DNA of 64,000 bases from Coxiellaceae bacterium (GTDB lineage: Bacteria > Pseudomonadota > Gammaproteobacteria > UBA9339), in the NCBI GenBank assembly GCA_031263815.1, contig JAISFD010000022.1, positions 5,320 through 69,319 of the forward strand, given 5' to 3'. Positions 916 to 64,000 of the stretch are shown one piece after another. The notes below the pieces were generated by a model. It saw nothing but the letters and a program-made list of their open reading frames with translations. It searched no databases and was not told the DNA's origin. The translations under genes and the position numbers were made by a program. Positions within the stretch are counted from its first letter, which is position 1; every line of letters begins with the position of its first letter.

Positions 916-1799
916 ATGGTAAAAACACTCAACATTTTTAATAAGATAAATTTACTTCGAGAAAGATACTATAATGCATCTATGGGTAAGGAAGAGCTCG
1001 TTAGGCTTCTTGCTGAAGCTGAGGTAGCAGAACAAGTATATAATTCAAATGCCATAGAAAATAGTACGCTTACTCTCTAAGAAACTGAAAAATACTTCTG
1101 CAAATAGATTTGGATAGATTTATTACTGAACGGGAAAATTTCGAAGCAAAGAACCTTGCACAGGTTGTTTCATATATTGATAAAAAAGCCAAGGAGCAAG
1201 AACTTAATTTTTCCGTGATTTTATTGCTTCATAAAATGCTTATCTCAAATATTCGTGATGATATTGCCGGAAGATTTCGTAGCAATAATGAATATGTTCG
1301 TGTTGGGAATCACATTGCGCCATCTCCGCAGGAAGTCGTAAGTAGACTTGAAAAAATGCTGATATAGTATAATGCTGCAAGCCATGAAAATGTTATCAAG
1401 CGCATCGGAAAACTGCATCTTACTTTTGGATATATTCATCCATTTGTTGATGGGAATGGTCGTATCGGGCGTGTTATTAATAATTATTTGCTAATACGCG
1501 AAGGATTTGTACCAATAAATATAAAATTTATTGATAGGAAAAAATATTATGAAGCATTTAGAGAATTTGATGAAACGAACAAGACTATTATTATGAAAGA
1601 GATCATTGGAAGAGCTCTTACCAACAGTTATCATAAAAGATTGGCATATTTAGAAGATAAAGAAATCATTACTCTTGCTGAATATGCAAAAAATAATAAA
1701 CTTTCACATTCAAATCTTATAAATAAAGCAGGGCGACAAGCTATTGAGGCTTTTTTAGAAAGAAATGTTTGGAAAATTGGTATTAATTGCAACAATTGA
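916..1799 (+). pseudogene. Fic/DOC-family (AMPylase-type) gene, disrupted
   Basis: The canonical Fic motif HPFVDGNGRIGR is at 1437-1472 and an N-terminal inhibitory-helix-like SNAIEN is at 1045-1062. The reading frame is broken by TAA 1078-1080, a frame change between 1080 and 1110, and an in-frame TAG 1365-1367. The pieces correspond to ORFs 835..1080, 1110..1367 and 1488..1799. Confidence 0.85.
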
Positions 1800-3423: not shown

Positions 3424-3611
3424 TTAATTTTTGCTTCGTTAATCAGCGAAAATCAATCCCGCAAACTCTCACAATATAACAGCTAAAGCTTAAGGAAATA
3501 TTATGTAAATTTTAGTTTCATTAGTACAAAATAAACTATAAAATTTTGCGCATTATAACTAAAATGTATATGCTTATCTAGTTTTTAGATATAATTTTTT
3601 GTAGAATGTTT

Positions 3612-4043
3612 ATGGCGATTGAAAAAACCTTATCTATCATCAAGCCTGACGCGGTAGCAAAAAATATTATTGGTGAAATCTTAAGTCGTTTTGAAAAAAA
3701 TGGCTTAAAAATAGTAGCTGCAAAAATGTTACATTTAACAAAGTCACAAGCTGAAAAGTTTTATGCAGTGCATAAAGAAAAACCATTCTATCAGACTCTT
3801 GTAAATTTTATGAGCTCCAGTCCAGTATTAGTACAAGTATTAGAAGGAGATGATGCAATTGCCAAAAATCGTCGTATTATAGGTGCAACTGATCCTAAAA
3901 AAGCTGATCCAGGTACTATTCGATCTGATTTTGCAGCTTCAATCGATTTTAATGCTGTTCATGGTTCTGATGCTCCTGAAACTGCTGTTTTTGAGATAGG
4001 ATTTTTTTTTAAACCAGACGAAATTCATTCGCATTTAACTTAA
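3612..4043 (+). CDS. ndk: Nucleoside diphosphate kinase
   Basis: [15 protein letters not shown]...NAVHGSD is a near-canonical Ndk. The second ATG (3612) matches the usual N-terminus. Confidence 0.95.
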
Positions 4044-7659: not shown

Positions 7660-8273
7660 ATGGATTTGATCAAACATATTCAAGCTAATTTTTATGACAG
7701 TATTAATTTAAAATATGAGATAGCTAAAACCTTGAGTCCAGTTATCATAGATGCTGGTCATATGTTGACCAATGTATTCGTAGTGGGGGTAAAGTTTTAA
7801 GTTGTGGTAATGGTGGATCAGCATGCGATGCCTTGCACTTTAATGCTGAGATAGCTAATAGATTTATGATCGAGCGTGATGGATTACCTGCTTTAGCATT
7901 AATCTCTGATACAGCTCTTTTGACAGCTATTGCTAATGATCATGCTTATCGAGATATATTTGCTAGACAAATCCAGGCATTAGGCAAAGAAAATGATGTA
8001 TTACTTGCGATTTCTACAAGTGGTAATTCAGAGAATGTTACTCGTGCTATTCTTAAAGCCCATGAATGCAAAATAGGGGTTATAGCATTGATTGGTAAAA
8101 ATGGTGGGGAAATAGCAAAAATTTTAGGTGCTAACGATATTGAGATCAGAGTGCCATCGCAAATTACCCCTCGTATTCAAGAGGTACATATTTTGATTAT
8201 TCATTCTTTATGTGAATTAGTAGATATTTTATTAAAAATTAAAAATAAGGTGATAATATGCGAAGAATTTTAG
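7660..8273 (+). pseudogene. diaA: DiaA/GmhA-family SIS-domain gene with a 1-nt frameshift
   Basis: MDLIKHIQANFYDSINLKYEIAKTLSPVIIDAGHMLT (frame 1) continues as QCIRSGGKVLSCGNGGSACDALHFNAEIANRF... in frame 0 from ~7770. The frame-1 reading stops at TAA 7798-7800. The joined product aligns end to end with E. coli DiaA as remembered. Confidence 0.8.
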
Positions 8274-19099: not shown

Positions 19100-19223
19100 A
19101 TTTTAGAGAGCAAATAATCGAAAACTTTAAATATTTTCTTGTGAAAAAAACTAGAATATTCTATAAATTGTGGTATTGTTAGCAAGTAATATTTTTTATT
19201 ATTCATTAACGAAGGGGAGAGTT

Positions 19224-19613
19224 ATGTCAAAAAAGATTAAAAAAGGTAAACAAGCGGTAAAGAAAGTTGTAAAAAATAAAAAATGTGTATGTCCAGTCAA
19301 AGTTAGTAAGCCATTTAATAAATCAAAAATTACTGGTGCTATTGCGGATATGACTTGTTTAAGCAAAAAAGATGCTAACTTAATGCTAGATACCTTATTT
19401 GAGATTATAGCCTCACATCTTAAAAGACGTAGCGGCGTTGGGGAATTTACTCTACCTGGTATTGCTAAATTTAAAGTAGTTAATAAACCAGCAACTAAAG
19501 CTTGCCAAGGCATTAATCCTTTTACTGGTGAGTCCATGATGTTTGCTGCAAAGCCTGCTCGTAATATAATTAAAGTACGGGCGCTAAAAAAGATAAAAGA
19601 TATAGCTAAGTAA
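19224..19613 (+). CDS. HU/IHF-fold DNA-binding protein with a lysine-rich N-terminal tail
   Basis: HU-fold core (LSKKDANLMLDTLFEIIASHL...GINPFTGESMMFAAKPARNIIKVRALK) preceded by ~30 aa of MSKKIKKGKQAVKKVVKNKK. The SD-like GGGGAG sits 5 nt upstream of ATG 19224. Confidence 0.75.
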   Translation: MSKKIKKGKQAVKKVVKNKKCVCPVKVSKPFNKSKITGAIADMTCLSKKDANLMLDTLFEIIASHLKRRSGVGEFTLPGIAKFKVVNKPATKACQGINPFTGESMMFAAKPARNIIKVRALKKIKDIAK

Positions 19614-23379: not shown

Positions 23380-23955
23380 GTGAAAAACTTGCGACATAAA
23401 TATAACTCACAATTAAGAGATTTCCATAACATCGTTCTGATCGGTCCTATGGGAGCTGGAAAAACTAGTATTGGTCGGGCATTAGCTCGAGAACTTGGCT
23501 GGAAATTTTATGATTCTGATCACATGATTGAAGAGTGTGCAGGAGTGGATCTTTTGTGGATCTATGATCTAGAAGGGGAAGATAGCTTCCATAAGTGGGA
23601 GCAAAAGGTAATTGCCGAACTCACACAAAAACCTAACATCATTCTTGCAACTGGTGGTAGTACCGTAATAGTTCCTGAAAATAGGGAGGCAATATTAAGA
23701 AACGGCTTAATTGTGTATTTATCTATTTCTCTTGATGATCAATTAATCCGTACGGGATACGGCAAAAAACGGCCGTTGTCTCAAGATTTAGAAGAACGTC
23801 GTAAAATTTTAAAACGGCTTTACAGTGAATATGTTCCGCTTTATGAAAAACTAGCTGATATTGTTTTTAATACAGATAGCAAAACAAGCCATACTACAAT
23901 TGCAGCTTTAGTCAAATTAATTCATGACAAAGCACCGCACTTTAAATTCGATTAG
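23380..23955 (+). CDS. aroK: Shikimate kinase
   Basis: LIGPMGAGKTSIGRALA P-loop, GGSTV motif, small size, GTG start. Confidence 0.85.
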   Translation: MKNLRHKYNSQLRDFHNIVLIGPMGAGKTSIGRALARELGWKFYDSDHMIEECAGVDLLWIYDLEGEDSFHKWEQKVIAELTQKPNIILATGGSTVIVPENREAILRNGLIVYLSISLDDQLIRTGYGKKRPLSQDLEERRKILKRLYSEYVPLYEKLADIVFNTDSKTSHTTIAALVKLIHDKAPHFKFD

Positions 23956-23966
23956 TTATAATTGCA

Positions 23967-25424
23967 TTACATGTCAGATTGTTTCTGATGTAACTCTTTA
24001 TTTAGAGCAAGTGTGGAATAGAGCCACCATAACATTACAATTACGAATATACCAGCAATTGCGGGAGCTAAATCTAGTAGAGTTAGACCACTAAATATTG
24101 TAAGCAATACTTGCTGAATAAATGCTCCACTCCCTTTACCAAAGCGCATCCCGATCATTTCAGCAGCAGCTTTACCTTTAGTTTTTAGATCATCATCTAA
24201 TGGTATATATGCCATCTCTTTAGTAGCATCGAATAGTGTATGTTTAGTTGACCTTGCTGCAATATTATGAACAGCGCCAAAATACACAGCCATAGCTAAT
24301 GCTGGCATACTAACACTAAACACCAAAGCAATGTCTTTGAAGACCATAAACAAGAAAAACATTACACCTACAATCGCAAATATAATAGGAGTAATTAATG
24401 CCGTAGTTTTCCACTTACATGCACGCACAATATAAACTCCGAGTAAAGCAAAAGCGATACTGAGAATCGAAATATAGAGGTTAATGTTACTCATAAAATA
24501 ATGGATAAGATTGGCGTCACCACCAAAATGAATTTCGATAGATTTTTTCCATACGCCTTCTGCTAAATTAATTGAAATGTTATAGCATAGAAGTAACGAG
24601 GTAATTAGCAGTATAGGTTTAGATGATGCAATAACTTTCAAGCTTTCGGTAAAACTAATCTTAGGTTTTTTGGTTTTGACAATGCCACCAATATTACTAC
24701 GACTGTTAAATTTTTCTATACCAATAACTTTACCTAGTAGTACGATGCAAATCGACAATAAAACTCCACCGACTATCAGAGAAATAGTCACATTATTTAG
24801 AGTTGGTTGCCAGTCAGTGCCATGGGTTACAAAGGATTTAGATAAAGTCCCGGCAAACATCATACCAAATTGAGCAGTTAGGCCGAAAAGAGGATAAAAT
24901 CGTTTTGATTCTTCAATGCTTGTAATATGGTTGACGGCTTGCCACAAAGAAATGGAGAGCATGATAGTCACCCACATCTCAGAGAAGACATAAAATAGAC
25001 AAAAGTCCCAACTACTTATTATAGTGAAAATATATTTCATAGCGGGTAATTGTTCTTGAGTTTCAGGGCTAATATAGATAGATAGTGCTTCATGATTTGG
25101 ATAGAACACAAGAGCGAATAGAGCAAAATAGGAGACAAAAAACCATGTCATAACATGAAAGAGTTTGCTCCGACTAAAAATATCTGCCAGTTTAATATAG
25201 GCAAACATAAATAAGATAGAAAGAGGTGTCACTAACCATAGTTTAATAGCGCTAATAGCTTCTGTATGCAAATGATGAATAACTAGTGCATCTTTTGATA
25301 TTTTTAACATAGTGTGAATATAGGTGATGATAATCATCATCGCAGCGAGACACATAAATTTTGATAACTCATGTTTATGAATAGGAACGACCTTTTCTTG
25401 TAACCATATAGTTAGTTTTTTCAT
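23967..25424 (-). CDS. tlc: ATP/ADP translocase-type nucleotide transporter (NTT/Tlc family), paralog 1
   Basis: Polytopic ~485-aa protein with family-typical blocks HITSIEESKRFYPLFG and EMAYIPLDDDLKTKGKAAAEMIGMRFGKGSGAF. I prefer the internal ATG (MKKLTIW) at 25424 over 25490. Confidence 0.9.
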   Translation of the reverse strand: MKKLTIWLQEKVVPIHKHELSKFMCLAAMMIIITYIHTMLKISKDALVIHHLHTEAISAIKLWLVTPLSILFMFAYIKLADIFSRSKLFHVMTWFFVSYFALFALVFYPNHEALSIYISPETQEQLPAMKYIFTIISSWDFCLFYVFSEMWVTIMLSISLWQAVNHITSIEESKRFYPLFGLTAQFGMMFAGTLSKSFVTHGTDWQPTLNNVTISLIVGGVLLSICIVLLGKVIGIEKFNSRSNIGGIVKTKKPKISFTESLKVIASSKPILLITSLLLCYNISINLAEGVWKKSIEIHFGGDANLIHYFMSNINLYISILSIAFALLGVYIVRACKWKTTALITPIIFAIVGVMFFLFMVFKDIALVFSVSMPALAMAVYFGAVHNIAARSTKHTLFDATKEMAYIPLDDDLKTKGKAAAEMIGMRFGKGSGAFIQQVLLTIFSGLTLLDLAPAIAGIFVIVMLWWLYSTLALNKELHQKQSDM

Positions 25425-25738
25425 ACTACTTTCTCTTCTATTTTTTGATCTATTTTTATTATTTTTAGTATAGCACATGTAAAAATTCAAGTGGTGTTAT
25501 AGTATTAATTATTTTTTAAATTGTAAAGATTTGATTGCAACATTATATTTTCGGCTACAATTACTGATTTAGTATAGTAATTAACATTAGAAATATCCTT
25601 AACATTTCCTTAATAATTTTCTCTAAGAAATCATAACTATCTGAAATTTTCCGAATAAAGAACTTAGAAGTCAATGTTCGAGGGATAACCAGATAAGACT
25701 TGATTATTTAAAAATGATAAGATTTGTAACTAAGGACC

Positions 25739-31751: not shown

Positions 31752-33392
<1,641 letters not shown>

Positions 33393-35911: not shown

Positions 35912-36943
35912 ATGCAAACACTACTTCCTACTAGAATAGTTGGTCCAATTAAAATTATCAGTAATGATTTTTCTGCTGATTCTAGAGTTCCACTTGCTAC
36001 TTTTGAGAAGCCTCTATGGTTTTCAGTAGAGCGTGGAGCTCGAGTAACAAGAAAATCTGGGGGTATAAGGACAGTGTTAGTGCAAGATTGTATGACACGA
36101 TCAATATTAGTCGAGGCTGAAAATGCTATTTATGCATTTGAAGTAGTCAATAGCTTAAAAGGGTTTCGATCTGAATTAGAAAAAATCGCTGTTAAAAGTA
36201 GTAGATTTACACAACTTAAAGATTGGCAAACTCAAATTGTAGCTAACCTGATTTATATTCGTTTTACTTTTACTACTGGTGGAGCTGCAGGTCATAATAT
36301 GTCAACAAAAGCAGCTGAGATGTTGCAACAGTGGCTATTAGATAAATTTCCTAAGTTGAAATATATCTCAATTTCTGGAAATTATTGTGTCGATAAAAAA
36401 AATTCAGCAGTAAATGGTATTTTGGGTAGAGGTAAATTTGTAATTGCTGAAGCTTTGATTCCTCGTGAACTTTGTCAGAAAGAATTGAAAGCTAGTCCAG
36501 AGAAAATCGTTGATTTAAATATTAAAAAGAATCTTCTTGGCTCAATTATTTCTGGTGGAGTAAGAACTGCTAATGCCCATTTTGCTAACATGCTTTTAGC
36601 ATTTTATTTAGCTATGGGCCAAGATGCAGCGAATATTGTTGAAGGATCCCAAGGATTTACTTATGCAGAAGTACGCAAAGATGATTTATATTTTTCAGTA
36701 ACTTTGCCCAATATCATTATTGGTGCAATAGGTAGCAATAAAGATCTAGATTGGGTAAAGGAAAATTTAAGAATATTGGGAGTTTTAAAGCCGAATGACT
36801 ATAATTTTAATGCGCGTGCCCTTGCGTTGATAGCGGCAGCAGTAGTTTTATGTGGAGAGATTTCTTTAATGGCTGCACAAACAAATCCTGGGGAACTTAT
36901 GCGAAGTCATTTAGCAATTGAAAGAAAAAACGTAATTAAGTAA
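35912..36943 (+). CDS. HMG-CoA reductase, class-I-like, short soluble form
   Basis: Blocks matching the class I catalytic core: PLATFEKPLWFS (Glu), SGNYCVDKKNSAVNGILGRGK (DKK Lys), GQDAANIVEGS (Asp), GELMRSHL (His), ANAHFAN. It lacks the N-domain and the membrane anchor. TTGGAAGHNM replaces the usual TGDAMGMNM. Confidence 0.75.
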   Translation: MQTLLPTRIVGPIKIISNDFSADSRVPLATFEKPLWFSVERGARVTRKSGGIRTVLVQDCMTRSILVEAENAIYAFEVVNSLKGFRSELEKIAVKSSRFTQLKDWQTQIVANLIYIRFTFTTGGAAGHNMSTKAAEMLQQWLLDKFPKLKYISISGNYCVDKKNSAVNGILGRGKFVIAEALIPRELCQKELKASPEKIVDLNIKKNLLGSIISGGVRTANAHFANMLLAFYLAMGQDAANIVEGSQGFTYAEVRKDDLYFSVTLPNIIIGAIGSNKDLDWVKENLRILGVLKPNDYNFNARALALIAAAVVLCGEISLMAAQTNPGELMRSHLAIERKNVIK

Positions 36944-38139: not shown

Positions 38140-39735
38140 ATGGAGTTTTTAGGCATGATTAATAAATCGCGAAAAGTTGCTGTTTGTGTCAAAAAAACAC
38201 CCCCCTGTAATAATATTTGCCCTGCAGGAGAAGATATTCAACATTGGCTAAATTTAGCTAAAGAACAAAAATATCATGAAGCATGGCAAGTTATTTTGCA
38301 AAGTAATCCTTTCCCAGCTATTCATGGTAGGGTTTGTTATCATTATTGTGAAACTAGGTGTAATCGAATACAACACGATTCAACTGTAGGAATTCATTGT
38401 ATTGAACGGTTTCTGGGAGATATGGCTCTAAGAGAGAAATGGGCCGCCCCAGCATTAAATACTAATACTAAAAAAGAGATTCTAATTGTAGGAGCTGGTC
38501 CAGCTGGTTTAACTGCAGCTTATTATTTACGTTTGTTTGGATACAATGTTACGATTTACGAGTCTCTACCTCAAGCCGGTGGTATGATGTTAATAGGTAT
38601 CCCAGCTTACCGTCTTCCACGTGAGATTCTATTTGGAGAGATTAATCGTGTTTTGAATACTGGAATAAAAATTGAATATAACCACAAAGTTCAGGATGTA
38701 ATTAAAGAAAAAGACGATCATGGTTTTGATGCGGTATTTTTAGCTATTGGTGCCCATTTGGGAAAAGATATCGCTATTCAAATAGAGGATCCATGCATAG
38801 TTATGGATGCTATTGACTATCTACGCGGAATTGCTCTAGGAAGATCAACTGCTCTTGGATCACGTTTAGTAGTCTATGGTGGTGGTAATACCGCAATAGA
38901 TGTGGCTCGAAGTGCTAAACGTTTGGGTGTATCTGACGTTAATATTGTTTACCATCGTACCCGTGAGAGAATGTCGGCTTTCAATCGTGAAATAGAAGCT
39001 GCTCTGGCTGAAGGCATTAAATTTACTTTTTTACGCAGTATTATAGCTCTCAACCACAATACTTTAACTTTAAGTATTAACGAGATTGATAACAAAGGGC
39101 GGCCCAAAAATACTGGGAAGATTGAAACACTAGAAATTGATGCTTTGATTTTTGCTTTAGGTCAAATTCCAGATTCTGAATTTTTGCGTAAAATTCCTGA
39201 AGTTGGATTACAGCCGGCTGGAGTAATAACTATAGATGATTTATTTATAACTGGATATCGTGGTATTTTTGCTGGTGGTGATATGATTCCATTTGATCGA
39301 AGTATTACTGCAGCTGTAGGTCACGGTAGACGTGCGGCTTATTGTATTGATTCATATTTGGGTCATACTCATACTTCTTTTGGTGAATTGCCTTTTAGTA
39401 AAGAGTTGGCGTCTTTCGACAAATTACATATTAGTGATGAAAAGTCGCAAAAAACTATGGAAAAAATGCTGCAAGCGGGGACACGAGTCAAATCTTTTTC
39501 CGAAGTTATTCCGAGTTGTACTCAAAATGAAGTTTTATATGAATCAAAGCGTTGTTTTTCATGTGGCAATTGTTTTGGTTGTGGTAAGTGTTATGCAGTT
39601 TGTCCTGTAACAGCGATAACACATTCAAAGCTAGATGGTAAAGTTACTGAAATTAATCCGGCAAAATGTATTGATTGTAGTCAATGTTTTAAAATTTGTC
39701 CATGTGGTGCTATCAATATGATAGATAGAAAATAA
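38140..39735 (+). CDS. GltD-like NAD(P)H-dependent Fe-S flavoprotein oxidoreductase with a C-terminal 2x[4Fe-4S] ferredoxin domain
   Basis: N-terminal Cys cluster (CNNICPAG...CYHYCETRCNR). Two dinucleotide folds (IVGAGPAGLTAAYYL; VVYGGGNTAIDVARSA). C-terminal CFSCGNCFGCGKCYAVCP and CIDCSQCFKICPCGA. Confidence 0.8.
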   Translation: MEFLGMINKSRKVAVCVKKTPPCNNICPAGEDIQHWLNLAKEQKYHEAWQVILQSNPFPAIHGRVCYHYCETRCNRIQHDSTVGIHCIERFLGDMALREKWAAPALNTNTKKEILIVGAGPAGLTAAYYLRLFGYNVTIYESLPQAGGMMLIGIPAYRLPREILFGEINRVLNTGIKIEYNHKVQDVIKEKDDHGFDAVFLAIGAHLGKDIAIQIEDPCIVMDAIDYLRGIALGRSTALGSRLVVYGGGNTAIDVARSAKRLGVSDVNIVYHRTRERMSAFNREIEAALAEGIKFTFLRSIIALNHNTLTLSINEIDNKGRPKNTGKIETLEIDALIFALGQIPDSEFLRKIPEVGLQPAGVITIDDLFITGYRGIFAGGDMIPFDRSITAAVGHGRRAAYCIDSYLGHTHTSFGELPFSKELASFDKLHISDEKSQKTMEKMLQAGTRVKSFSEVIPSCTQNEVLYESKRCFSCGNCFGCGKCYAVCPVTAITHSKLDGKVTEINPAKCIDCSQCFKICPCGAINMIDRK

Positions 39736-39754
39736 AAGTTATTATGAGGTAGTT

Positions 39755-42700
39755 ATGAATGCAGAAATGAAGATAATGGATGGTAATGAAGCGGTAGCAT
39801 ATATTGCTTACCGTGTTACAGAAATTAATGCAATTTATCCGATCACTCCTTCTACTCCTATGGGGGAATTTGCTGATCAATGGGCATCTGATGGGGTAAA
39901 GAATATTTGGAATACTGTCCCACAAGTAGTTGAAATGCAGAGTGAGGGTGGTGCCGCTGGTGTATTACATGGAGCTTTACAAGGTGGTGCTTTAGCAACG
40001 ACTTATACAGCTTCTCAGGGACTTCTTTTGATGATTCCTAATATGTATAAAATTGCTGGTGAACTAACCTCAACTGTGATTCATGTGGCATCTCGTTCTT
40101 TAGCATGTCAAGGGTTATCTATTTTTGGTGATCATAGTGATGTGATGGGAATTCGTGATACTGGTTTTGTAATGTTAGCTTCAGGTAGCGTCCAGGAGGC
40201 TCATGATTTAGCACTAATTGCTCATGCATCGACATTAGAAGCAAGGATACCATTTATTCATTTTTTTGAAGGGTTTCGAGTTAGCCATGAGATTAATAAA
40301 ATAGATCTTATAACTGATGAACAAATCCGCACTATGATCGATGAAGATCTGGTATTAGCCCATCGACGTCGTGCTTTAAGCCCTGAATGTCCATGTATCC
40401 GTGGCACATCGCAAAATCCAGATGTATATTTTCAAGGGCGAGAAACTGTTAACCCCTTTTATTTGAAGGTACCAAGTATTGTTGAAAAATATATGGATAG
40501 ATTAGCTAATCTCACTGGACGAAAATATTCCTTAATGAACTATTATGGAGATAAAGCAGCAGAAAAAGTTATTATTATTATGGGATCTGCTTCCAAGGTG
40601 GTTATCGAAACAGTTGCCGAACTTAATGCGCAAGGAGAAAAAGTTGGAGTAATACAGGTTTATTTATATCGTCCATTCCCTGTAGATCGGTTTATGCAAG
40701 TCTTACCTACGAGTGTTAAGGTGATAGCAGTGTTAGATCGTACTAAAGAACCTGGATCTCTTGGTGAGCCTTTATATCAAGATGTATTAACAGCATTGGC
40801 TGAAATAATAAATCAAGGTAAAGTAATTTTTAATAGCGGCTATCCCAAAGTTGTTGGCGGACGCTATGGTTTATCATCTAAAGAGTTCACCCCAGCGATG
40901 GCTAAAGGAGTATTTGATAACCTCAAACAAGATTTTCCCAAAAATCATTTCACTATTGGGATCAAAGATGATGTAACTAATAGCAATTTAGACTATGACG
41001 TAAATTTCTCTATTAAAGATTCTCAACATAAGTGTTTTATTTTTTATGGTTTAGGTTCAGATGGCACTATAGGGGCTAATAAAAACACCATAAAAATTAT
41101 TGGCCAAGAAACTCCATTATATGTGCAAGGTTATTTTGTTTATGATTCAAAAAAATCTGGATCCAAAACAGTATCACATCTACGGTTTTCATCCAAACCA
41201 ATCCAAGCTCCGTACCTAATTACAACTGCTGATTTTATTGCATGTCATCAGTTTAACTTTATCGAATCTGAGACTATCTTAGACAATGCAATTACTGGCG
41301 CTACATTTTTATTAAATTCTCCATTTGGCCCCAATGAAATTTGGGATAATTTACCCAGAGTTGTAGTGGAGAAAATTCTTGCTAAAAAGATGAAATTTTA
41401 TGTTATTGATGCCTATAAAGTTGCAGCGCAGACCGGGATGGGCGTAAGAATTAATACCATTATGCAAACCTGTTTCTTTGCCATTTCGGGTATTTTACCT
41501 CGTGAAGAAGCTATTACTAAGATTAAGGATGCTATTGTTAAAACCTATAAGAAGAAAGGGGAAGAAGTAATTAAGAAAAATTTTGCAGCGGTTGATCAAA
41601 CTTTAGATAATCTTTTTGCAGTAAAACTAATAGATGAAGTATCAATTAAAGCTCATGATTTAGCTCCAACAGTGAGTAGTAAGGCTCCAGAATTTGTTCA
41701 AAAAGTTACCGTGGTAATGATGAAAGATCAGGGAGATAATTTGCCGGTTAGTGCTTTACCGATCGATGGTACTTATCCAAGTGGTACCACTCAGTGGGAA
41801 AAACGTAATGTCTCAGCCGAAGTTGCGGAGTGGAATCCTGATTTATGTATTCAATGTGGACAATGCAGTTTGATATGCCCTCATGGAGTAATCCGTGCTA
41901 AACATTTTACTCAGGATAGTCTGCAAAATGCTCCAGCCGATTTTAAGACTGCCAAATGCCGAGCTAAAGAATTTGCTAATGATCAATTCAGATTACAAGT
42001 TTATCTTGAAGATTGTACTGGATGTGGTTTGTGTAATGAAGTATGTCCAGCCGTTAGTAAAGAGAATCATGAAATTAAAGCTATTATGATTACACCTAAA
42101 GCTTCTAGATTGACTATAGAACGTAGAAATATCGAATTTTTTGCAAGTTTAATTGATGAAGATAAACGAGAAATTGATAACTCTAATGTAAGGGGAGTGC
42201 AATATTTACCTCCTTACTTTGAATTCTCTGGTGCCTGCTCTGGGTGCGGTGAAACGCCTTATATTAAATTAGTTAGTCAATTATTTGGTGACAGAATGTT
42301 AGTGGCTAATGCAACTGGTTGTTCTTCGATTTATGGTGGTAATTTACCTACAACGCCGTGGACTTTTGATAATTCTGGACGTGGTCCTGCTTGGTCAAAT
42401 TCATTATTTGAAGATAATGCTGAATTTGGTCTTGGTTTTAGATTAGCCACGGATAAACAACAAGTACTTGCTTTAGAATTACTCCAAGAATTTTCTGAAC
42501 AAATAGATAACGATCTAGTAGCCGCAGTCATTCAGGGAACGAAAGAAGACGATGAAAAAAATATTTTTATTCAACGTCAACGTCTTATAGAACTAAAAGA
42601 GAAACTAACTAAAATGCGGGATCCACGGATTAAACATTTATTAATGTTATTAGAATATCTAGTTAAGCGTAGTATCTGGATAATAGGTGGTGATGGTTGG

Positions 42701-43318
42701 GCCTATGATATCGGTTATGGTGGTGTAGATCATGTATTAGCTAGTAATTATGATGTGAATATTTTGGTATTAGATACAGAAGTATATTCTAATACAGGTG
42801 GTCAAGCTTCCAAAGCTACTCCCCGGGGGGCAGCTGCTAAATTTGTCAATTCTGGTAAATCCTTAGCTCGTAAAGATTTAGGGATGATAGCTATGACATA
42901 CAATAATGTTTATGTAGCTCAAGTAGCACTAGGAGCAAATCCTGCTCAAACTATACGAGCAATTATTGAGGCCGAGAGTTATCATGGACCTTCATTAATT
43001 ATCGCTTATAGCCATTGTATAGCTCATGGATATGATTTACGCCATGGAATTATGCAACAAAAACTAGCTATTAATAGTGGTTTTTGGCCTCTTTATCGCT
43101 ATCATCCTGATCGCCTTAAACAAGGTCTAAATCCTTTGCAATTAGACTCTAAAGAACCGAGTATTCCGGTACGAGATTTTGCATACAATGAATCCCGTTT
43201 TAAGGTTCTAGCATCTCAACATCCAGAGCATGCTGAAGAATTACTAAAGCAATTGCAAGAGGATGTAACTAAGCGCTGGCAAATGTACGTTAATATGTCT
43301 CTAGCCAAGTACAATTAA
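39755..43318 (+). CDS. nifJ: Pyruvate:ferredoxin (flavodoxin) oxidoreductase, single-chain NifJ/YdbK type
   Basis: 1187 aa. Two ferredoxin motifs (CIQCGQCSLICPHG, CTGCGLCNEVCPA) and a TPP-binding block IIGGDGWAYDIGYGG...DTEVYSNTGGQ. It starts 19 nt after the GltD-like stop. Confidence 0.95.
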   Translation: MNAEMKIMDGNEAVAYIAYRVTEINAIYPITPSTPMGEFADQWASDGVKNIWNTVPQVVEMQSEGGAAGVLHGALQGGALATTYTASQGLLLMIPNMYKIAGELTSTVIHVASRSLACQGLSIFGDHSDVMGIRDTGFVMLASGSVQEAHDLALIAHASTLEARIPFIHFFEGFRVSHEINKIDLITDEQIRTMIDEDLVLAHRRRALSPECPCIRGTSQNPDVYFQGRETVNPFYLKVPSIVEKYMDRLANLTGRKYSLMNYYGDKAAEKVIIIMGSASKVVIETVAELNAQGEKVGVIQVYLYRPFPVDRFMQVLPTSVKVIAVLDRTKEPGSLGEPLYQDVLTALAEIINQGKVIFNSGYPKVVGGRYGLSSKEFTPAMAKGVFDNLKQDFPKNHFTIGIKDDVTNSNLDYDVNFSIKDSQHKCFIFYGLGSDGTIGANKNTIKIIGQETPLYVQGYFVYDSKKSGSKTVSHLRFSSKPIQAPYLITTADFIACHQFNFIESETILDNAITGATFLLNSPFGPNEIWDNLPRVVVEKILAKKMKFYVIDAYKVAAQTGMGVRINTIMQTCFFAISGILPREEAITKIKDAIVKTYKKKGEEVIKKNFAAVDQTLDNLFAVKLIDEVSIKAHDLAPTVSSKAPEFVQKVTVVMMKDQGDNLPVSALPIDGTYPSGTTQWEKRNVSAEVAEWNPDLCIQCGQCSLICPHGVIRAKHFTQDSLQNAPADFKTAKCRAKEFANDQFRLQVYLEDCTGCGLCNEVCPAVSKENHEIKAIMITPKASRLTIERRNIEFFASLIDEDKREIDNSNVRGVQYLPPYFEFSGACSGCGETPYIKLVSQLFGDRMLVANATGCSSIYGGNLPTTPWTFDNSGRGPAWSNSLFEDNAEFGLGFRLATDKQQVLALELLQEFSEQIDNDLVAAVIQGTKEDDEKNIFIQRQRLIELKEKLTKMRDPRIKHLLMLLEYLVKRSIWIIGGDGWAYDIGYGGVDHVLASNYDVNILVLDTEVYSNTGGQASKATPRGAAAKFVNSGKSLARKDLGMIAMTYNNVYVAQVALGANPAQTIRAIIEAESYHGPSLIIAYSHCIAHGYDLRHGIMQQKLAINSGFWPLYRYHPDRLKQGLNPLQLDSKEPSIPVRDFAYNESRFKVLASQHPEHAEELLKQLQEDVTKRWQMYVNMSLAKYN

Positions 43319-43352: not shown

Positions 43353-44783
43353 TTATTTGAGTTTGGTAGCTAGACGATTTAGGGCAAAAATGGAATAAAA
43401 CCACCCGAGAGAGATAATTATAAAGATCGTAAAAATTATAGGCGATAGATCGAGGAGAGTTAGTGCTGGAAATAATGCAAATAACCCTTGTTGCAGGAAA
43501 GCTCCACTACCTTTGCCAAATCTCATACCTACAATTTCAGCAGCTGCTTTACCTTTAGTTTTCAGATCATCATCTAAAGGTATATAAATCATTTCTTTAG
43601 TGGGATCAAATATCGCGTGTTTTAAAGAACGGGAACAAACATTGTAAACGGCTCCTAAATACACTGCTACTATTATTATTGATGATTGCAAAGTAAGTAG
43701 CCATGTGATCTCTCTAAATAGTATTGATAAGAAGAATATTCCACCTGTAAGCAAAATAATTATTGGAGTAATTAAAGCAGCGATTTTCCACTTAAGAAGA
43801 CGTAAGACATGAGCCCCAATAAATGTACTCGTGATACTAACTATTGAGATACATATATCTATTTTACTAATAAAGTGTTGAATATAATTCGCATTACTTG
43901 TAAAAAATATCTCAATAGATTTTTTCCAAACTCCTTCGACTATATTGAGTGAGATATTGTAACAAAGTAGTAATGATGTAATTAAAAGCATGACTTTAGA
44001 AGAACTAATATATTTTAAGCTTTCTTTAAAACTAATCTTGTTCTTTGATTTAAAATGACCTCTTTTTAAGTTAAAAGTATTAACACCAATTATCTTTTCT
44101 AAAAAAAATAGACAAATAGTTATTATTATTCCAGCTATGACGATTGAAATCGTAATATTATTCAATGTTGATTGCCAATCAGCGGCATATTTTGCTGCAT
44201 AATTAGTAGATAAAATTCCAGCGATCATTTTACCTAATCCTGCAAAGGTACCAAAAAGAGGATAGAACCTTTTGGATTCCTCAATAGAGGTTATATGATT
44301 TGCAGTTTGCCAAAAAGAGATTGAAAACATAATGACAACCCAGCCTTCAGAAAATACGTAAAACAAAGTGTAATGCCAATTACTTACTATTCTGAACAGA
44401 TATTTAAATGATGAAAGTCGTGAGACTATAGGATTGCTTATATCGATAATTAATGTCTCTCTATGCGGGTAAAGTACTAAAGCAAATAATATAAAATAAG
44501 AAATAAAAAACCAGGTAGTAATATAAAATAACTGTGCCCTTGATAATTTATCTGATAGTTTAATATACAAAAACATGAAAATTAGAGAAATCGGTAATAC
44601 CGCCCATATTTTAATTGCGCTTATAGATTCAGTACCCAAGTGAGAAATAACTAGAACATCTTTTGATATGTGCAGTATGCTATGAATATAAGCTATGGCA
44701 AAAATAAGCACTGCGGTACACAAAAACTTTGTCAATTCAACCCGTTGAATTGGGATCAACTTCTTTATTGTATGCTTATTCAT
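43353..44783 (-). CDS. tlc: ATP/ADP translocase-type nucleotide transporter (NTT/Tlc family), paralog 2
   Basis: 476 aa and colinear with the 23967..25424 product. By eye, half or more of the positions are shared, including HITSIEESKRFYPLFG and EMIYIPLDDDLKTKGKAAAEIVGMRFGKGSGAF. Confidence 0.9.
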   Translation of the reverse strand: MNKHTIKKLIPIQRVELTKFLCTAVLIFAIAYIHSILHISKDVLVISHLGTESISAIKIWAVLPISLIFMFLYIKLSDKLSRAQLFYITTWFFISYFILFALVLYPHRETLIIDISNPIVSRLSSFKYLFRIVSNWHYTLFYVFSEGWVVIMFSISFWQTANHITSIEESKRFYPLFGTFAGLGKMIAGILSTNYAAKYAADWQSTLNNITISIVIAGIIITICLFFLEKIIGVNTFNLKRGHFKSKNKISFKESLKYISSSKVMLLITSLLLCYNISLNIVEGVWKKSIEIFFTSNANYIQHFISKIDICISIVSITSTFIGAHVLRLLKWKIAALITPIIILLTGGIFFLSILFREITWLLTLQSSIIIVAVYLGAVYNVCSRSLKHAIFDPTKEMIYIPLDDDLKTKGKAAAEIVGMRFGKGSGAFLQQGLFALFPALTLLDLSPIIFTIFIIISLGWFYSIFALNRLATKLK

Positions 44784-44856: not shown

Positions 44857-45498
44857 TTAAGCATTTATGTGAACAATCACTAATAATTTCCCCGATCTAA
44901 ATTGAATATTAACTATTTTATTCTTAAATTCGTTTGACAGAGTTAAAGTGTCGCCCATCTTAAGGAGGTAATTGTTAAGAAGATATTTGCTACCTTTTAA
45001 ACTCAGGTCTTTGACGTTTCCACCATAAGCTTGGAGGGAAAACATTTGTCCAGGGTGACCATAAATTGTAGCCGCTTTTTTTAGCAACACTATAGTCTGA
45101 TAATCATCTTTTAAGTGGGCATTGATATTTAGGCTTAAACACTTGTCTAAAAGACCCATAGAACCTAGAAGGTGATCTATGCGATTTCCACCAAGACATC
45201 CCAGAAAAGCAATTTTTTCTGGGTTTAAGTCGATAGCTTTATTCAAAGCAAGTTCAGTGTCAGTTAAATCCTTTTCAGGCGGGTGACATTCAATAGTAAC
45301 ATTATTATTGCTCCAAAATTTTAGAATTTTTTTATCGATAGAGTCACAATCTCCAATAATAAAGTTGGGAGTAATTTTATATTGCCATAAACAATTAGCT
45401 CCACTATCAGCGGCAATAATGATGCTCTTAGACATAATTTCTTGCATTACTAATCTTTTTGAAGGGGGAATACCACCAGCAACAATCACAGCTTTCAT
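44857..45498 (-). CDS. thiN: Thiamine pyrophosphokinase
   Basis: MKAVIVAGG...IIAADSGAN...IIGDCDSI...PEKDLTDTELAL...LGGNRIDHLLG matches the TPK catalytic domain. The C-terminal half is beta-rich and thiamine-binding-like. Confidence 0.75.
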   Translation of the reverse strand: MKAVIVAGGIPPSKRLVMQEIMSKSIIIAADSGANCLWQYKITPNFIIGDCDSIDKKILKFWSNNNVTIECHPPEKDLTDTELALNKAIDLNPEKIAFLGCLGGNRIDHLLGSMGLLDKCLSLNINAHLKDDYQTIVLLKKAATIYGHPGQMFSLQAYGGNVKDLSLKGSKYLLNNYLLKMGDTLTLSNEFKNKIVNIQFRSGKLLVIVHINA

Positions 45499-45566
45499 AA
45501 GAGTAATTTTACACATAACATTAAAAACGGTATAGTTAGCAACAAGAATATATTTTAAGGTTAAAT

Positions 45567-46331
45567 ATGAGAATTTTAATTAGTAATGATGATGGAGTTT
45601 ATGGTATAGGACTTAATGTTTTAGCAAATGAACTATCAAAAATCGCTGAAATAGTTGTTGTAGCGCCTGATCGAGATCGCAGTGGAGCAAGTAACTCTCT
45701 TAGTATCCAGGTTCCTGTTAGAATGCAGCAATTGCCTAATGGTTACTATAGTGTAACTGGTACACCAACAGATTGTGTACATCTAGCAATTACTGGTTTG
45801 TTTAAAACTAAATTCGATATGATTATCTCGGGAATTAATTCGGGTGCTAATCTTGGTGATGATATTCTGTATTCCGGAACAGTAGCAGCAGCGACTGAAG
45901 GGGGGATTCTAGGAATCCAATCGGTTGCTTTCTCACTTGTCAAAAGAGATTCACAAGAAAATTTTGCTACTGCTGCCGCAGTTGCTGGGCAAATTATTAC
46001 ACGTTTACAAAGGGAACCATTGCCTCGTGCAACCATTCTTAATGTTAATGTCCCTGATGTTAATCTTGAAGAACTACAAGGATTCGAACTAACCCGTTTA
46101 GGAAAACGCCATCCTGCTCAGCCGGCAATTAAAGCGCTTGATCCTCGAGGGAGCTCGATATACTGGATTGGAGCATCAGGTCTAGAAGAAGATGCTGGTC
46201 CTGGTACAGATTTCTATGCCATTAAAGAAAATAAAGTTTCTATAACACCAATTCAAATTGATATGACTAATTATAATGCTTTTGATAACATTAAAACTTG
46301 GGTATCTGGATTAGTACATTGTAGAAAATAA
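45567..46331 (+). CDS. surE: 5-prime/3-prime-nucleotidase SurE
   Basis: MRILISNDDGV...GINSGANLGDDILYSGTVAAA is canonical SurE. Confidence 0.95.
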   Translation: MRILISNDDGVYGIGLNVLANELSKIAEIVVVAPDRDRSGASNSLSIQVPVRMQQLPNGYYSVTGTPTDCVHLAITGLFKTKFDMIISGINSGANLGDDILYSGTVAAATEGGILGIQSVAFSLVKRDSQENFATAAAVAGQIITRLQREPLPRATILNVNVPDVNLEELQGFELTRLGKRHPAQPAIKALDPRGSSIYWIGASGLEEDAGPGTDFYAIKENKVSITPIQIDMTNYNAFDNIKTWVSGLVHCRK

Positions 46332-47718: not shown

Positions 47719-48465
47719 CTATTTTTCCAAATTGGCAGTAGTTAATATTTTAAATGCGAAATTATTGTTACTGTAATAAAGTAAAATACTTCCTTGAGTA
47801 TCCCATCCTCCTAAAGAAAAACGGTGTACTTGTTTTGTTCCTATCTCAAATTCTCCAGTTTCTGCAACATGAACATGTCCGTGAATTAACTGGTCAGAAT
47901 TATATTTACATAAGAGATTTTTCGAAACTTCTTCTAATTGTGCCACCAAAACCTGGTGATTTTTTCCAGCTTTAATTTTAGTACTGATTTTTTGAGTATT
48001 AATAGCGAACCATGAACGGATCTTTAATGGTAATCTTAAAAATATTTTTATCCCCCAATGGATCCGTATAATTTTTCTAAAAATATGGTATTTACTATCC
48101 TTACTACATAACAGATCACCATGGGTTAATAAAATTCTCTTACCGTAGAGATTAAACTCATAAGGGTCAGGAATTAAAATGCACCCACTTTCTCTGGCGA
48201 AAGCTGATCCTAAAAGGAAATCACGATTTCCTGGCATTAGATAGATCAGTGTCTTACTGCTAGCAAGTCTTAAAGAGTTTTTAATTTGTTCATTGAAGAT
48301 TGAGTGATCATCGTCTCCAATCCAGAGTTGAAAAAGATCACCAAGAATGTAGATAGCATCAGTAGTAGACTCAATCTCTTCGAGAAACTTGCAAAACAAC
48401 TTTGCAATATCAGGTTTGTTGCTACTTAAATGTAAGTCAGAAATAAAAATTGTATAGCGATACAT
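47719..48465 (-). CDS. lpxH: UDP-2,3-diacylglucosamine diphosphatase LpxH
   Basis: Calcineurin-like metallophosphoesterase motifs FISDLHLS, GDLFQLWIGDD, GNRD and THGD. Confidence 0.85.
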   Translation of the reverse strand: MYRYTIFISDLHLSSNKPDIAKLFCKFLEEIESTTDAIYILGDLFQLWIGDDDHSIFNEQIKNSLRLASSKTLIYLMPGNRDFLLGSAFARESGCILIPDPYEFNLYGKRILLTHGDLLCSKDSKYHIFRKIIRIHWGIKIFLRLPLKIRSWFAINTQKISTKIKAGKNHQVLVAQLEEVSKNLLCKYNSDQLIHGHVHVAETGEFEIGTKQVHRFSLGGWDTQGSILLYYSNNNFAFKILTTANLEK

Positions 48466-60999: not shown

Positions 61000-61234
61000 T
61001 ATAATATTTATAGTAACAGTTAGTTAGTCTTAAAATCTCAATTTATTCAAATAAATACAATATATTCTAGTTATAATTAACAGACAATTAGTAATTGTTC
61101 TTAAACTATGGTATAAAGCTTTACGCAATTTAGCAATAAAAATACTCACATATATCGTCACATAACTTTGGGTGCCGAAACAGTATATTTGGTTAGGTTA
61201 TGGGATATATGGAGGCTTAACCCGAGGAGAGAAA

Positions 61235-62155
61235 ATGATTGATATTACTATTCGCCAGATGTTAGAGGCTGGCGTCCATTTTGGCCATCAGGTTTCATTT
61301 TGGAACCCAAGGATGGCTCCCTATATTTTCGGTAGCAAAAATAAAATCCACATCATAGATCTTGAGAAAACTCTTCCCATGTATAAACATGCTATTAACT
61401 TTTTAAGCAATGTAGCTGCAAAAAAGGGTAATATATTGTTCGTCGGTACTAAACAACAAGCAAGAGCCTTAATTCGTGATGAAGCTAAACGTTGCCACAT
61501 GCCATATATAGATTATCGTTGGTTGGGAGGAATGTTAACTAACTATAAAACAATTAGACAATCACTAAAACGTTTAACTGAATTAGAAGCATTACGAGAT
61601 AGTCTAACTTTTGGACGTCTTCCTAAAAAAGAAGCATTATCCATTATGCGTGAAATTACTAAACTTGAAAAAAGTTTGGGTGGAATTCGCGAAATGGGTG
61701 GTTTACCAGATGCTCTCTTTATCATTGACGTTGGGCATGAAAAAATTGCAGTTAGTGAAGCTTCAAAGCTAAAAATTCCAATCATTGGGATAGTTGATAC
61801 TAACAATAGCCCAGACAATATTGACTATGTTATACCCGGCAATGACGATTCGATCAAAGCAATTAAACTGTATTTAGAGGGTATAGCTGACGCTATTATT
61901 AATGCTCGTAGCCACATAGTTGAAGAAGAAATGGTTGTTGATGAAGATAAGAATGATAAAGAGAAAGAAAAACGTAGTAGTAAGAAATCGGTCTTGCCTA
62001 AAAAAAGGGTTTTAAAAAAGAAAGAGCATGTAATAAGTAGCGCAAAGGAAGAAGTAAAGACCAAGACACATAAAGCAAAATCTAATCATAAAATTCCAGT
62101 GACTAAGATTAAAAAAGAAAGTACTAAACATAAAGATGTAACTGTAACTAAATAA
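61235..62155 (+). CDS. rpsB: 30S ribosomal protein S2 with a lysine-rich C-terminal extension
   Basis: [19 protein letters not shown] is the canonical S2 start, with SD GAGGAG upstream of ATG 61235. About 70 extra K/E-rich residues follow the S2 core. Confidence 0.95.
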
Positions 62156-62166
62156 GTCACCAAGAT

Positions 62167-63045
62167 ATGACAATTAATACCTCATTAATTAAAGAGTTAC
62201 GTGAAGCCACAGGTGCGGGAATGATGGAGTGCAAAAAAGCTCTAGAAGAAGCGGAAGGCAATCTGGAAACAGCACTTACTATCATACGCAAAGCAGGCCA
62301 TGCTAAAGCGGCTAGAAAGGTAAATCGTATTGCTTGCGAAGGGATCATCACTATTAAAACAAGTCCTGATCATAAAAAAGCGATTATGATTGAGATCAAT
62401 TGTGAAACAGATTTTGCTGCTAAGGATCATTCATTCTTAGAATTTGTAGATACTATAGCCAATCAAAGTCTTAACGAACAAATCATGGACCTTAAATCAT
62501 TCATAGCTTTGCCTTCTGTTGCTGAAATGCAAGAAAATTTAATTGCTAAAATTGGAGAAAATGTAACTATTCGTCGCCTAAAAATGATGGTTATTGATGG
62601 AGAAGGTATGATCAGTAACTATCTTCACGGTAATAGAATAGGAGTTCTAGTTAAATTATCTCTGGCTAATGCTGAACTGGGTAAGGATTTAGCAATGCAT
62701 ATTGCAGCTTGTAGTCCAATAGCTATTGGGCCAGAAAGTTTACCACAAACTTTGATTGATAAAGAAAAAGAGATTTATTTTGCCCAATTACAAAATTCTA
62801 ACAAATCTCAAGAAGTTTTAGCAAAGATTGTTGCAGGACGTATCCAAAAGTTTATCAATGAATCAGTCTTAGTTAAACAGCCATTTGTTAAAAACCCAGA
62901 ACTGTTGGTTGAAGATTTGTTACAGAAATTTCATCTACATATTATAGATTTTACTCGCTTTGAAGTTGGTGAAGGGATAGAGAAAAAAATGACTGATTTT
63001 GTTTCTGAAGTAGAGGCGCAGATAAAAACTAAAAAAGATCTATGA
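62167..63045 (+). CDS. tsf: Elongation factor Ts
   Basis: LIKELREATGAGMMECKKALEEAEGNLE UBA-like start plus the dimerisation core. Confidence 0.95.
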   Translation: MTINTSLIKELREATGAGMMECKKALEEAEGNLETALTIIRKAGHAKAARKVNRIACEGIITIKTSPDHKKAIMIEINCETDFAAKDHSFLEFVDTIANQSLNEQIMDLKSFIALPSVAEMQENLIAKIGENVTIRRLKMMVIDGEGMISNYLHGNRIGVLVKLSLANAELGKDLAMHIAACSPIAIGPESLPQTLIDKEKEIYFAQLQNSNKSQEVLAKIVAGRIQKFINESVLVKQPFVKNPELLVEDLLQKFHLHIIDFTRFEVGEGIEKKMTDFVSEVEAQIKTKKDL

Positions 63046-63549
63046 CAACTCCCAAAAAATATCGTTATAAACGTATTATACTTAAATTCAGTGGTGAAGC
63101 CCTAATAGGCCAGGAAGTTTATGGTATCGGTTGCCAAATTATTGAAGAGATTGCTTATGATATTAAAGCTTTACTTAAAGCCAAAATTCAAATTGGCATA
63201 GTTGTTGGAGGTGGTAATTTTTTCCGTGGTGCAAAGCTTAAGAGATGTAAATTATCACATATTACTGGCGATCATTTAGGAATGATCTCCACCACCCTAA
63301 ATGCCCTAGCAATGCGTGATATTTTCACTCAACTTAAAATCCCAACTAAAGTTATGTATGCATGCTAAGTTCTACTCTCATTTAACTTATGCAAAAGCTT
63401 TAGCAAAAGAATCGGGGTGATGGATCGATCTATTCGCATTTAGTTTAGGAGCTGATCATCGAATGAAGCTATGTATTTTTGATCTACGTAAAAAAGGAGC
63501 ATTGTTACGTATAGTTCAAGGGGCAGATGAAGGAACTTTGGTAGAATAA
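63042..63549 (+). pseudogene. pyrH: UMP kinase remnant (internal deletion, frame change, two premature stops)
   Basis: The N-terminal 108 codons are PyrH-like (YKRIILKFSGEAL...VVGGGNFFRGA...GDHLGMISTTLNALAMRD) and end at TAA 63366-63368. The C-terminal homology resumes in another frame at 63373 (YSHLTYAKALAKE...[41 protein letters not shown]) with an in-frame TGA at 63418-63420. The central ~85-90 residues, including the GTGNPFFTTD region, are absent. Confidence 0.85.
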
Positions 63550-63562
63550 ACCGGAGATAGTT

Positions 63563-64000
63563 ATGTTAAACGATATCTTAAAAAATACCGAAATCAATAT
63601 GCAAAAAGCATTGGAAAATTTCAAAAATGAATTAGGTAAGCTACGTACAGGACGGGCACACACTAGTCTAGTCGAAGGAATTAAAGTAGATTATTATAGC
63701 AATGAAACGGCATTAAAACATGTGGCTAATATTACCATTAATGATGCCCGTACCATTACAATAACTCCATGGGAAAAGACCATGGTTAAACCCATAGAAA
63801 AAGCTATCGCTAGCGCCGGTCTTGGTTTAAATCCGATTAGTGATGCTAATCTAGTCAGAGTACCTATTCCATCTTTAACTGAAGAACGGCGTAAAGAAAT
63901 GATCAAGATAGTAAAAAATATTGCCGAAACATCGCGAGTAGCGATACGCAACATTCGTCGTGAAGCTATGGATAAACTCAAAGAGTTACTAAAGAAAAAA
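63563..64000 (+). CDS. frr: Ribosome recycling factor (3-prime end beyond the window)
   Basis: ATG 63563 opens [45 protein letters not shown]...[24 protein letters not shown], a canonical RRF open to nt 64000. It is not listed in the ORF track. The minus-strand ORF 63694..63981 is its shadow. Confidence 0.9.

Follow-up and report, generated by a model that had tools for sequence, protein, structure and literature searches.

How does a bacterium that retains a full translation apparatus and makes a Gram-negative envelope supply itself with uridine nucleotides when its gene for uridine monophosphate (UMP) kinase is in ruins? UMP kinase, encoded by pyrH, is needed by nearly all bacteria for the building blocks of RNA and DNA. 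The gene is among the most persistent in bacteria, and its product is an antibiotic target without a eukaryotic counterpart. In a stretch of 64,000 nucleotides (nt) from a Coxiellaceae bacterium (contig JAISFD010000022.1; hereafter the window), pyrH is reduced to a remnant of 508 nt at 63042-63549 on the plus strand, flanked by intact tsf and frr. The reading that we rank first, and hold to be somewhat better than an even bet, is that this pseudogene and the import of uridine tri- or diphosphate (UTP, UDP) through NTT-type nucleotide transporters belong together, import having made PyrH dispensable.

Anatomy of the pyrH remnant

The 5' part of the remnant comprises codons 1-107 (63042..63362, plus strand). 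It matches the bacterial PyrH profile TIGR02075 (pyrH_bact) at positions 1-99 of 233 (E-value 2.6e-30, 105.8 bits), and residues 1-107 of the nearest intact orthologues, which are 240 amino acids long, align to 63042-63362 in tblastn with 63-66% identity; over all the comparisons made, identity to the nearest intact orthologues in the N-terminal part is 60-67%. The N-terminal motifs LKxSGE, GGGNxFRG and GDxxGM are all present (here as LKFSGE, GGGNFFRG and TGDHLGM). The open reading frame begins with an ATG that overlaps the tsf stop codon (ATGA) and extends over 108 codons (63042-63368), closing with a TAA at 63366..63368, one codon beyond a deletion junction at 63361..63362. At this junction the N-terminal and C-terminal tblastn segments overlap by 2 nt, and the dinucleotide CA is common to codon 107 (GCA) and the codon for orthologue residue 180 (CAT). 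This overlap marks a clean deletion, with 2 nt of microhomology at the junction. The internal deletion amounts to about 218 nt, with codons 108-180 (73 codons) gone and the frame shifted by +1. Profile positions 100-175 (orthologue residues 108-180), including the GTGNPF(F/V)TTD region, have no counterpart in any frame of 63042-63560.

The 3' part (63361..63549, plus strand) continues in the +1 frame with orthologue residues 180-240, includes the conserved C-terminal strand, and ends at the original TAA stop codon (63547-63549). It matches TIGR02075 at positions 176-233 (E-value 5.7e-13, 49 bits), and tblastn aligns orthologue residues 180/181-240 to 63361/63364-63546 with 61-75% identity (73% to the nearest relative, contig L082, after repair of the lesions described next). 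This fragment has no start codon, lies out of frame with the 5' part and contains a TGA at 63418-63420.

Two small lesions can be deduced within the 3' part from the orthologue alignment. A run of G at 63414..63417 (plus strand) has apparently lost 1 nt, which generates the in-frame TGA; when one base is restored, the translation reads KESG-V-MD, in agreement with the orthologue K(E/K)L(A/G)VMD. Just downstream, GATCGATC at 63423..63430 (plus strand) contains what appears to be a 4-nt tandem duplication of GATC that brings the reading back to the +1 frame; with one GATC removed, ATG GAT CTA TTC encodes MDLF, collinear with the orthologues. Repair of both lesions gives ...KESGVMDLFAFSL..., which aligns to the orthologues without gaps, and the segment obtained with one G added and one GATC taken away, ...AKESGVMDLFAFSLGADH..., is likewise collinear with them.

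The length of the locus can be reconstructed from these lesions: 508 + 218 + 1 - 4 = 723 nt, or 240 codons plus stop, which is the length of the nearest intact PyrH. Because this arithmetic closes exactly, three independent mutations explain the entire difference from a normal gene. Taken together, the homology E-values and the exact-length reconstruction place the assignment to pyrH far beyond chance. There is no uninterrupted frame of about 240 codons at the locus, and the two fragments, at 105.8 and 49 bits, do not amount to a full-length TIGR02075 match, for which the curated cutoff is 243.9 bits (about 233 profile positions).

The same lesions are seen in a second assembly. In the Logan assembly of SRA run SRR14710921, a contig of 19.4 kb (L001), built with a different assembler and with different contig boundaries, is 100% identical to the window over 3978 overlapping nt, the whole remnant included. 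The Logan gene caller on L001 likewise gives a 108-residue AA_kinase product. Disabling lesions relative to intact orthologues are thus reproduced in an independent assembly. Apart from the 108-residue product itself, the protein database, which includes the Logan predictions from SRR14710921, has no PyrH that exceeds 67% identity to the remnant; since 67% is the best non-self match, no intact allele has been assembled.

We conclude that 63042-63549 is a genuine non-functional pyrH pseudogene with three independent inactivating mutations. The deletion takes out the whole nucleotide-binding and catalytic core, and the locus as it reads now cannot yield a UMP kinase. What can be translated is probably only the 108-residue N-terminal stub, through coupling to tsf at the ATGA overlap, and such a stub cannot act as UMP kinase. 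Programmed frameshifting and a split but functional gene were considered and rejected, because the catalytic core is physically absent. Several lesions in one gene also imply that the sequence has been free of selection for some time.

The original prediction had described a decayed pyrH of about 508 nt, against about 720 nt for a normal gene, in an otherwise intact rpsB-tsf-pyrH-frr operon, with 108 PyrH codons closed by the TAA at 63366-63368, a missing centre including GTGNPFFTTD, and intact tsf and frr on either side; all of this agrees with the profile, orthologue and flanking-gene data. The in-frame TGA that it reported is real and is explained by the lost G together with the GATC duplication. 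Its view that homology resumes in a different frame also stands, whereas the resumption point (63373) and the extent (about 55 residues) need correction: homology begins about 10 nt earlier, at 63361-63364, and covers 60-61 residues.

Operon context and ancestral state

The operon around the remnant is otherwise in good order. It is headed by rpsB with its leader (61127..62155, plus strand), the leader being a t44 RNA at 61127..61221 (plus strand; Rfam RF00127, 80.6 bits) and rpsB starting at ATG 61235. The tsf gene for EF-Ts (62167..63045, plus strand) scores 298.7 bits against TIGR00116, with a cutoff of 104. The window contains the 5' part of frr, for ribosome recycling factor (63563..64000, plus strand); the gene is complete in L001 (185 amino acids), where it passes its NCBIfam cutoff. 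When the operon was scanned for promoters and terminators, no signal rose above shuffled expectation, and the remnant itself contained no promoter-like site on the plus strand.

In the GTDB representative collection, the closest relatives of the source genome share at most 50% identity in Tsf and are various Chromatiales, Legionella and Coxiellaceae metagenome-assembled genomes (MAGs). The original prediction had also called for a comparison with sister genomes, and a metagenome scan supplied a nearer relative, L082 (AMFJ01008006.1), with identities of 60% for Tsf, 72% for RpsB, 77% for Frr and 74% for Map. Its gene order is that of the window, map (on the minus strand), rpsB, tsf, pyrH, frr, uppS, cdsA, and its pyrH is intact with 240 residues. 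More broadly, 129 fetched related loci have both tsf and frr; the order tsf, pyrH, frr is found in 128 of them, with the window remnant in the same position, and pyrH is intact between its neighbours in 127. Because L082 and these 127 loci keep an intact pyrH, the loss is specific to the lineage studied here.

The two exceptions are of different kinds. In L041 (10962-11664; CALOFM010000053.1, a MAG), pyrH is split by one frameshift near residue 181, which could be a sequencing error. L122 (3100-3641; JGI Ga0316596_1000934, 68% GC) is an unrelated gammaproteobacterial metagenome contig in which decayed pyrH fragments in several frames lie between intact tsf and frr; tblastn finds residues 153-240 only, at 33% identity, and the pieces GGDAFFTT and ADVLTEATKV are in different frames. 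Judged by these fragments, pyrH has decayed at its canonical locus a second time, independently, in L122.

Possible routes of uridine nucleotide supply without PyrH

The window encodes two NTT paralogues, as the original prediction had noted together with an intact pyrG. The first lies at 23967..25490 on the minus strand (likely start at Met23 of the listed open reading frame; PDB 9j3n, E-value 1.6e-83), the second at 43353..44783, also on the minus strand. Both align to positions 1-471 of the 472 positions of TIGR00769 (TC 2.A.12), with 365 and 353 bits respectively against a curated cutoff of 387, and both match the solved NTT structures PDB 9j3n and 9j3j with E-values of 1e-72 to 1e-84. From these alignments, both genes are NTT homologues beyond doubt, the curated threshold alone being missed. 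The paralogues are 57% identical to each other, which suggests a lineage-specific duplication that could have let their substrates diverge.

Several enzymes that act on uridine nucleotides are intact as well. These are the CTP synthase gene pyrG (31764..33392, plus strand; NF003792, 818.8 bits), whose product consumes UTP to form cytidine triphosphate (CTP), and ndk for nucleoside diphosphate kinase (3606..4043, plus strand; NF001908, 210 bits). The gene lpxH for UDP-2,3-diacylglucosamine diphosphatase (47719..48465, minus strand; TIGR01854, 235 bits, cutoff 190) encodes a UMP-releasing step of lipid A synthesis, and surE for a 5'/3'-nucleotidase (45567..46331, plus strand; NF001489, 365.6 bits; Pfam SurE) offers a possible route of UMP disposal.

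UTP is still needed, because the cell retains PyrG and continues to make RNA and, from UDP-sugars, its envelope; since no UMP kinase can come from the pyrH locus, we infer that uridine nucleotides must enter the pool downstream of UMP. In the reading that we favour, the organism would be a host-dependent, probably intracellular gammaproteobacterium with an eroding genome. UDP or UTP would reach the cell by the simplest route, as a substrate of one of the two NTTs. Ndk would interconvert UDP and UTP, and PyrG would convert UTP to CTP. Net pyrimidine supply would then bypass UMP, selection on pyrH would be relaxed, and the gene would decay.

UMP would nevertheless still be released by envelope synthesis (through LpxH and presumably MraY) and by RNA turnover, so the cell would need either a weak rephosphorylating activity or a sink. 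A side activity, for instance that of Cmk, may slowly rephosphorylate UMP; otherwise UMP may be dephosphorylated by SurE or exported, for example via an NTT, and lost to the host. Over-expression of cmk suppresses the lethality of pyrH (smbA) loss in E. coli (PMC3603445). By analogy, Cmk as a backup UMP kinase is biochemically plausible, and the E. coli case is a precedent for life without PyrH by way of a weak UMP kinase, although it is a laboratory suppressor situation.

A number of observations weigh against import as the explanation. Both NTT paralogues could be exchangers of adenosine tri- and diphosphate. Chlamydia and Rickettsia are intracellular bacteria that carry NTTs and keep pyrH, and the presence of NTTs is therefore not a sufficient explanation on its own. 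The amoeba symbiont Berkiella keeps pyrH (PMC9803151), as does the minimal cell JCVI-syn3A (PMC6609329), and Rickettsia imports UMP (PMC5615194). The state of the remnant has to be weighed too. Among near-invariant columns (at least 95% conserved among 102 intact orthologues), the remnant keeps 28 of 37 and L082 keeps 32 of 37; the window-specific changes include R73H, A83S, S106Y and L197S. Because the remnant is only mildly decayed, the loss of pyrH appears to be fairly recent, and it could be a slightly deleterious mutation fixed by drift and not a settled adaptation. In divergence beyond that of L082 (111 outgroups), the PyrH remnant stands at 6.6 identity points, intact Tsf at 8.7, Frr at 1.8 and RpsB at 1.5, so that Tsf is accelerated as much as the remnant and the excess is no distinct mark of relaxed selection on pyrH.

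A more radical proposal is that no UMP kinase activity is left at all and that a Gram-negative envelope with its lipid A and peptidoglycan and a full translation apparatus are sustained on imported UTP or UDP alone. We regard this as possible but doubtful. UMP would then be waste, dephosphorylated by SurE or exchanged to the host by an NTT. In a variant of the proposal, an unconventional kinase would have taken over, such as Cmk or an AroK-like kinase encoded in the window at 23380-23955.

Rather unlikely, in our estimate, is the related alternative that the copy at this locus is dead while UMP kinase activity persists, another kinase having taken over first so that NTT import was not the cause. 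The replacement might be a second pyrH, either paralogous or gained by horizontal transfer, a Cmk of broadened specificity or a eukaryote-type UMP/CMP kinase. This would agree with the rule that essential genes are usually lost only once redundancy exists, and Cmk does have a weak UMP kinase activity whose over-expression rescues pyrH loss in E. coli (PMC3603445). Recycling of UMP should also be useful to a cell in which lpxH and other UMP-releasing envelope steps are intact. The genome portion inspected was about 73 kb, that is the window plus 9 kb of L001 (the Logan contig on the left side ends inside the window), which leaves room for such a kinase and counts against the import reading. Within these 73 kb, however, we found no cmk, no adk-like UMP/CMP kinase and no second pyrH or AA_kinase gene, nor any of pyrBCDEF or carAB. 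Among the proteins predicted by Logan from the same run, no PyrH exceeds 67% identity to the remnant, and there is therefore no recent paralogue, and duplicated housekeeping genes are generally rare in reduced genomes.

The AroK-like P-loop kinase just mentioned (23380..23955, plus strand) scores 181.5 bits, the AroK cutoff being 195. It has FHKWE in place of FRxRE and ATGGS in place of ATGGG, motifs that are conserved in at least 90% of 29 close homologues and present in solved AroK structures. A less strictly conserved Arg before PLY is Tyr, and the P-loop, the DSD motif and the lid sequence KKRPL are kept. The gene is not adjacent to aroB and abuts an NTT gene. With the shikimate-binding arginines apparently lost, the kinase may be decaying or repurposed. 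As a replacement UMP kinase it was set aside: conserved shikimate-binding residues are lost, but nothing connects the gene to UMP, and we retain it as a lead only.

It is very improbable that the lesions are an assembly or sequencing artefact, or belong to a minority or defective variant of a population that keeps pyrH intact. The source does appear to be a metagenome or MAG-type assembly, one lesion sits in a homopolymer (G4), and the surveyed MAG L041 has a single pyrH frameshift that is possibly an error. Against this stand three different lesions, and neither a 218-nt deletion in unique sequence with 2 nt of microhomology nor a 4-nt duplication is a typical product of assembly or base calling. 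The Logan contig is identical across the whole site, and from no sample in the protein database has an intact, near-identical PyrH been assembled. Two more genes of the window are disrupted, one of them (diaA-like, see below) identically in its own Logan contig, which fits real erosion. Three independent lesions, an identical second assembly and the lack of an assembled intact allele together largely remove the concern about an artefact.

We give hardly any credence to the idea that the truncated product, or both fragments together, still function, for example as a regulatory or structural subunit: the 5' frame is open, keeps conserved motifs and is placed for translational coupling to tsf, but with profile positions 100-175 the stub has lost the GTGNPFFTTD loop and the majority of the residues that contact UMP and ATP, the 3' fragment lacks a start codon, lies in another frame and carries a TGA, and several near-invariant residues are already altered (R73H, A83S, S106Y and L197S).

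Surrounding genome and comparison with known systems

The gene content of the window fits a host-dependent bacterium whose genome appears to be eroding yet is far from minimal. The window has 34.8% GC and a coding density of about 92%. Besides the NTTs it encodes a UhpC-type sugar-phosphate (hexose-phosphate) transporter and a thiamine pyrophosphokinase, which from sequence similarity we take as further signs of host dependence, the latter pointing to cofactor salvage. Envelope genes are well represented, with lpxH, kdsA, lptFG, mlaEFD and ugd in the window and frr, uppS, cdsA, bamA, skp, lpxD, fabZ, lpxA and alr following in the 9 kb of L001 beyond it.

Two further pseudogenes were found. A Fic/DOC-family gene with the HPFxDGNGR motif (982-1799, plus strand; Pfam Fic, E-value 1.2e-20) is broken into three pieces: the frame changes between 1077 and 1089, and a stop codon interrupts it at 1365-1367. 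A DiaA/GmhA-like SIS-domain gene (7660-8273, plus strand) is frameshifted near 7765-7775, so that a 46-residue N-terminal piece lies in another frame from the rest; when spliced, the two parts form a continuous SIS_2 domain. The split is identical in the independent Logan contig L162 (2269-2882).

The window also carries a metabolic set that is unusual for a gammaproteobacterium (35912-36943, 38140-43318, 44857-45516 and 2080-3423). It consists of a short class I-type HMG-CoA reductase of 343 amino acids, whose score does not reach the cutoff, a GltD-like oxidoreductase adjoining a pyruvate:ferredoxin oxidoreductase (PFOR) of 1187 amino acids, and the thiamine pyrophosphokinase, which is eukaryote-like, together with the UhpC-type transporter. 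Taken together, these genes suggest that the bacterium depends on a host and lives under microaerophilic or anaerobic conditions. Two other genes are worth recording. An HU/IHF-like DNA-binding protein with a lysine-rich N-terminal extension is encoded at 19170-19613 (plus strand). At 58-720 (plus strand) there is a 220-residue membrane protein with a tail rich in Pro, Ser and Gln and a repeated LEHLQQVP motif; Pfam gives no match for this protein, a possible effector or surface protein.

Comparison with known systems helps to place the remnant. Relative to functional bacterial PyrH (amino-acid-kinase fold; TIGR02075/PF00696; encoded in rpsB-tsf-pyrH-frr), it occupies the same position and is orthologous in its N- and C-terminal thirds, but it lacks the central 73 codons, its frame is interrupted at three places and the enzyme cannot be produced. 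With the nucleotide parasites that use NTT/Tlc transporters (Chlamydiae, Rickettsiales and some Legionellales/Coxiellales-like symbionts), the organism shares two NTT paralogues and the retention of pyrG and ndk. The classical representatives keep pyrH, as far as we know, whereas here the step from UMP to UDP is gone from the locus, which would require import of UDP or UTP, or another kinase.

The extremely reduced insect symbionts Carsonella, Hodgkinia and Tremblaya have likewise lost near-universal housekeeping genes under host dependence and drift. To our knowledge, documented absences of pyrH are confined to the tiniest insect symbionts, which also lack envelope synthesis, and these organisms have given up most of their metabolism as well. 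Unlike them, the genome studied here encodes lpxA, lpxD, lpxH, kdsA, lptFG, mla, bamA, uppS, cdsA and PFOR, and its pyrH is a recent, recognizable pseudogene. In a literature search of limited coverage, loss of pyrH was nowhere reported for a bacterium with NTTs, which is a weak negative; run SRR14710921 had no hit in the literature either.

The process, then, is a known one, namely gene loss under host dependence combined with nucleotide parasitism through NTTs, and what is unusual is which gene has been lost. We see no novel kind of system in the remnant: a persistent gene has become a pseudogene in a bacterium that is undergoing reductive evolution and probably imports nucleotides. Such a recent, natural inactivation of pyrH in an envelope-making genome would show where nucleotide import becomes complete enough to render UMP phosphorylation dispensable. 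A prediction of the import model is that UTP or UDP is a substrate of one or both NTT paralogues. If there is another kinase, the locus merely adds to the pseudogenes of an eroding genome. If there is no UMP kinase at all, pyrH loss would be documented here for the first time in a bacterium that is only moderately reduced and still envelope-competent, and this would mean that NTT import can replace a step that is kept even in Chlamydia, in Rickettsia and in the synthetic minimal cell.

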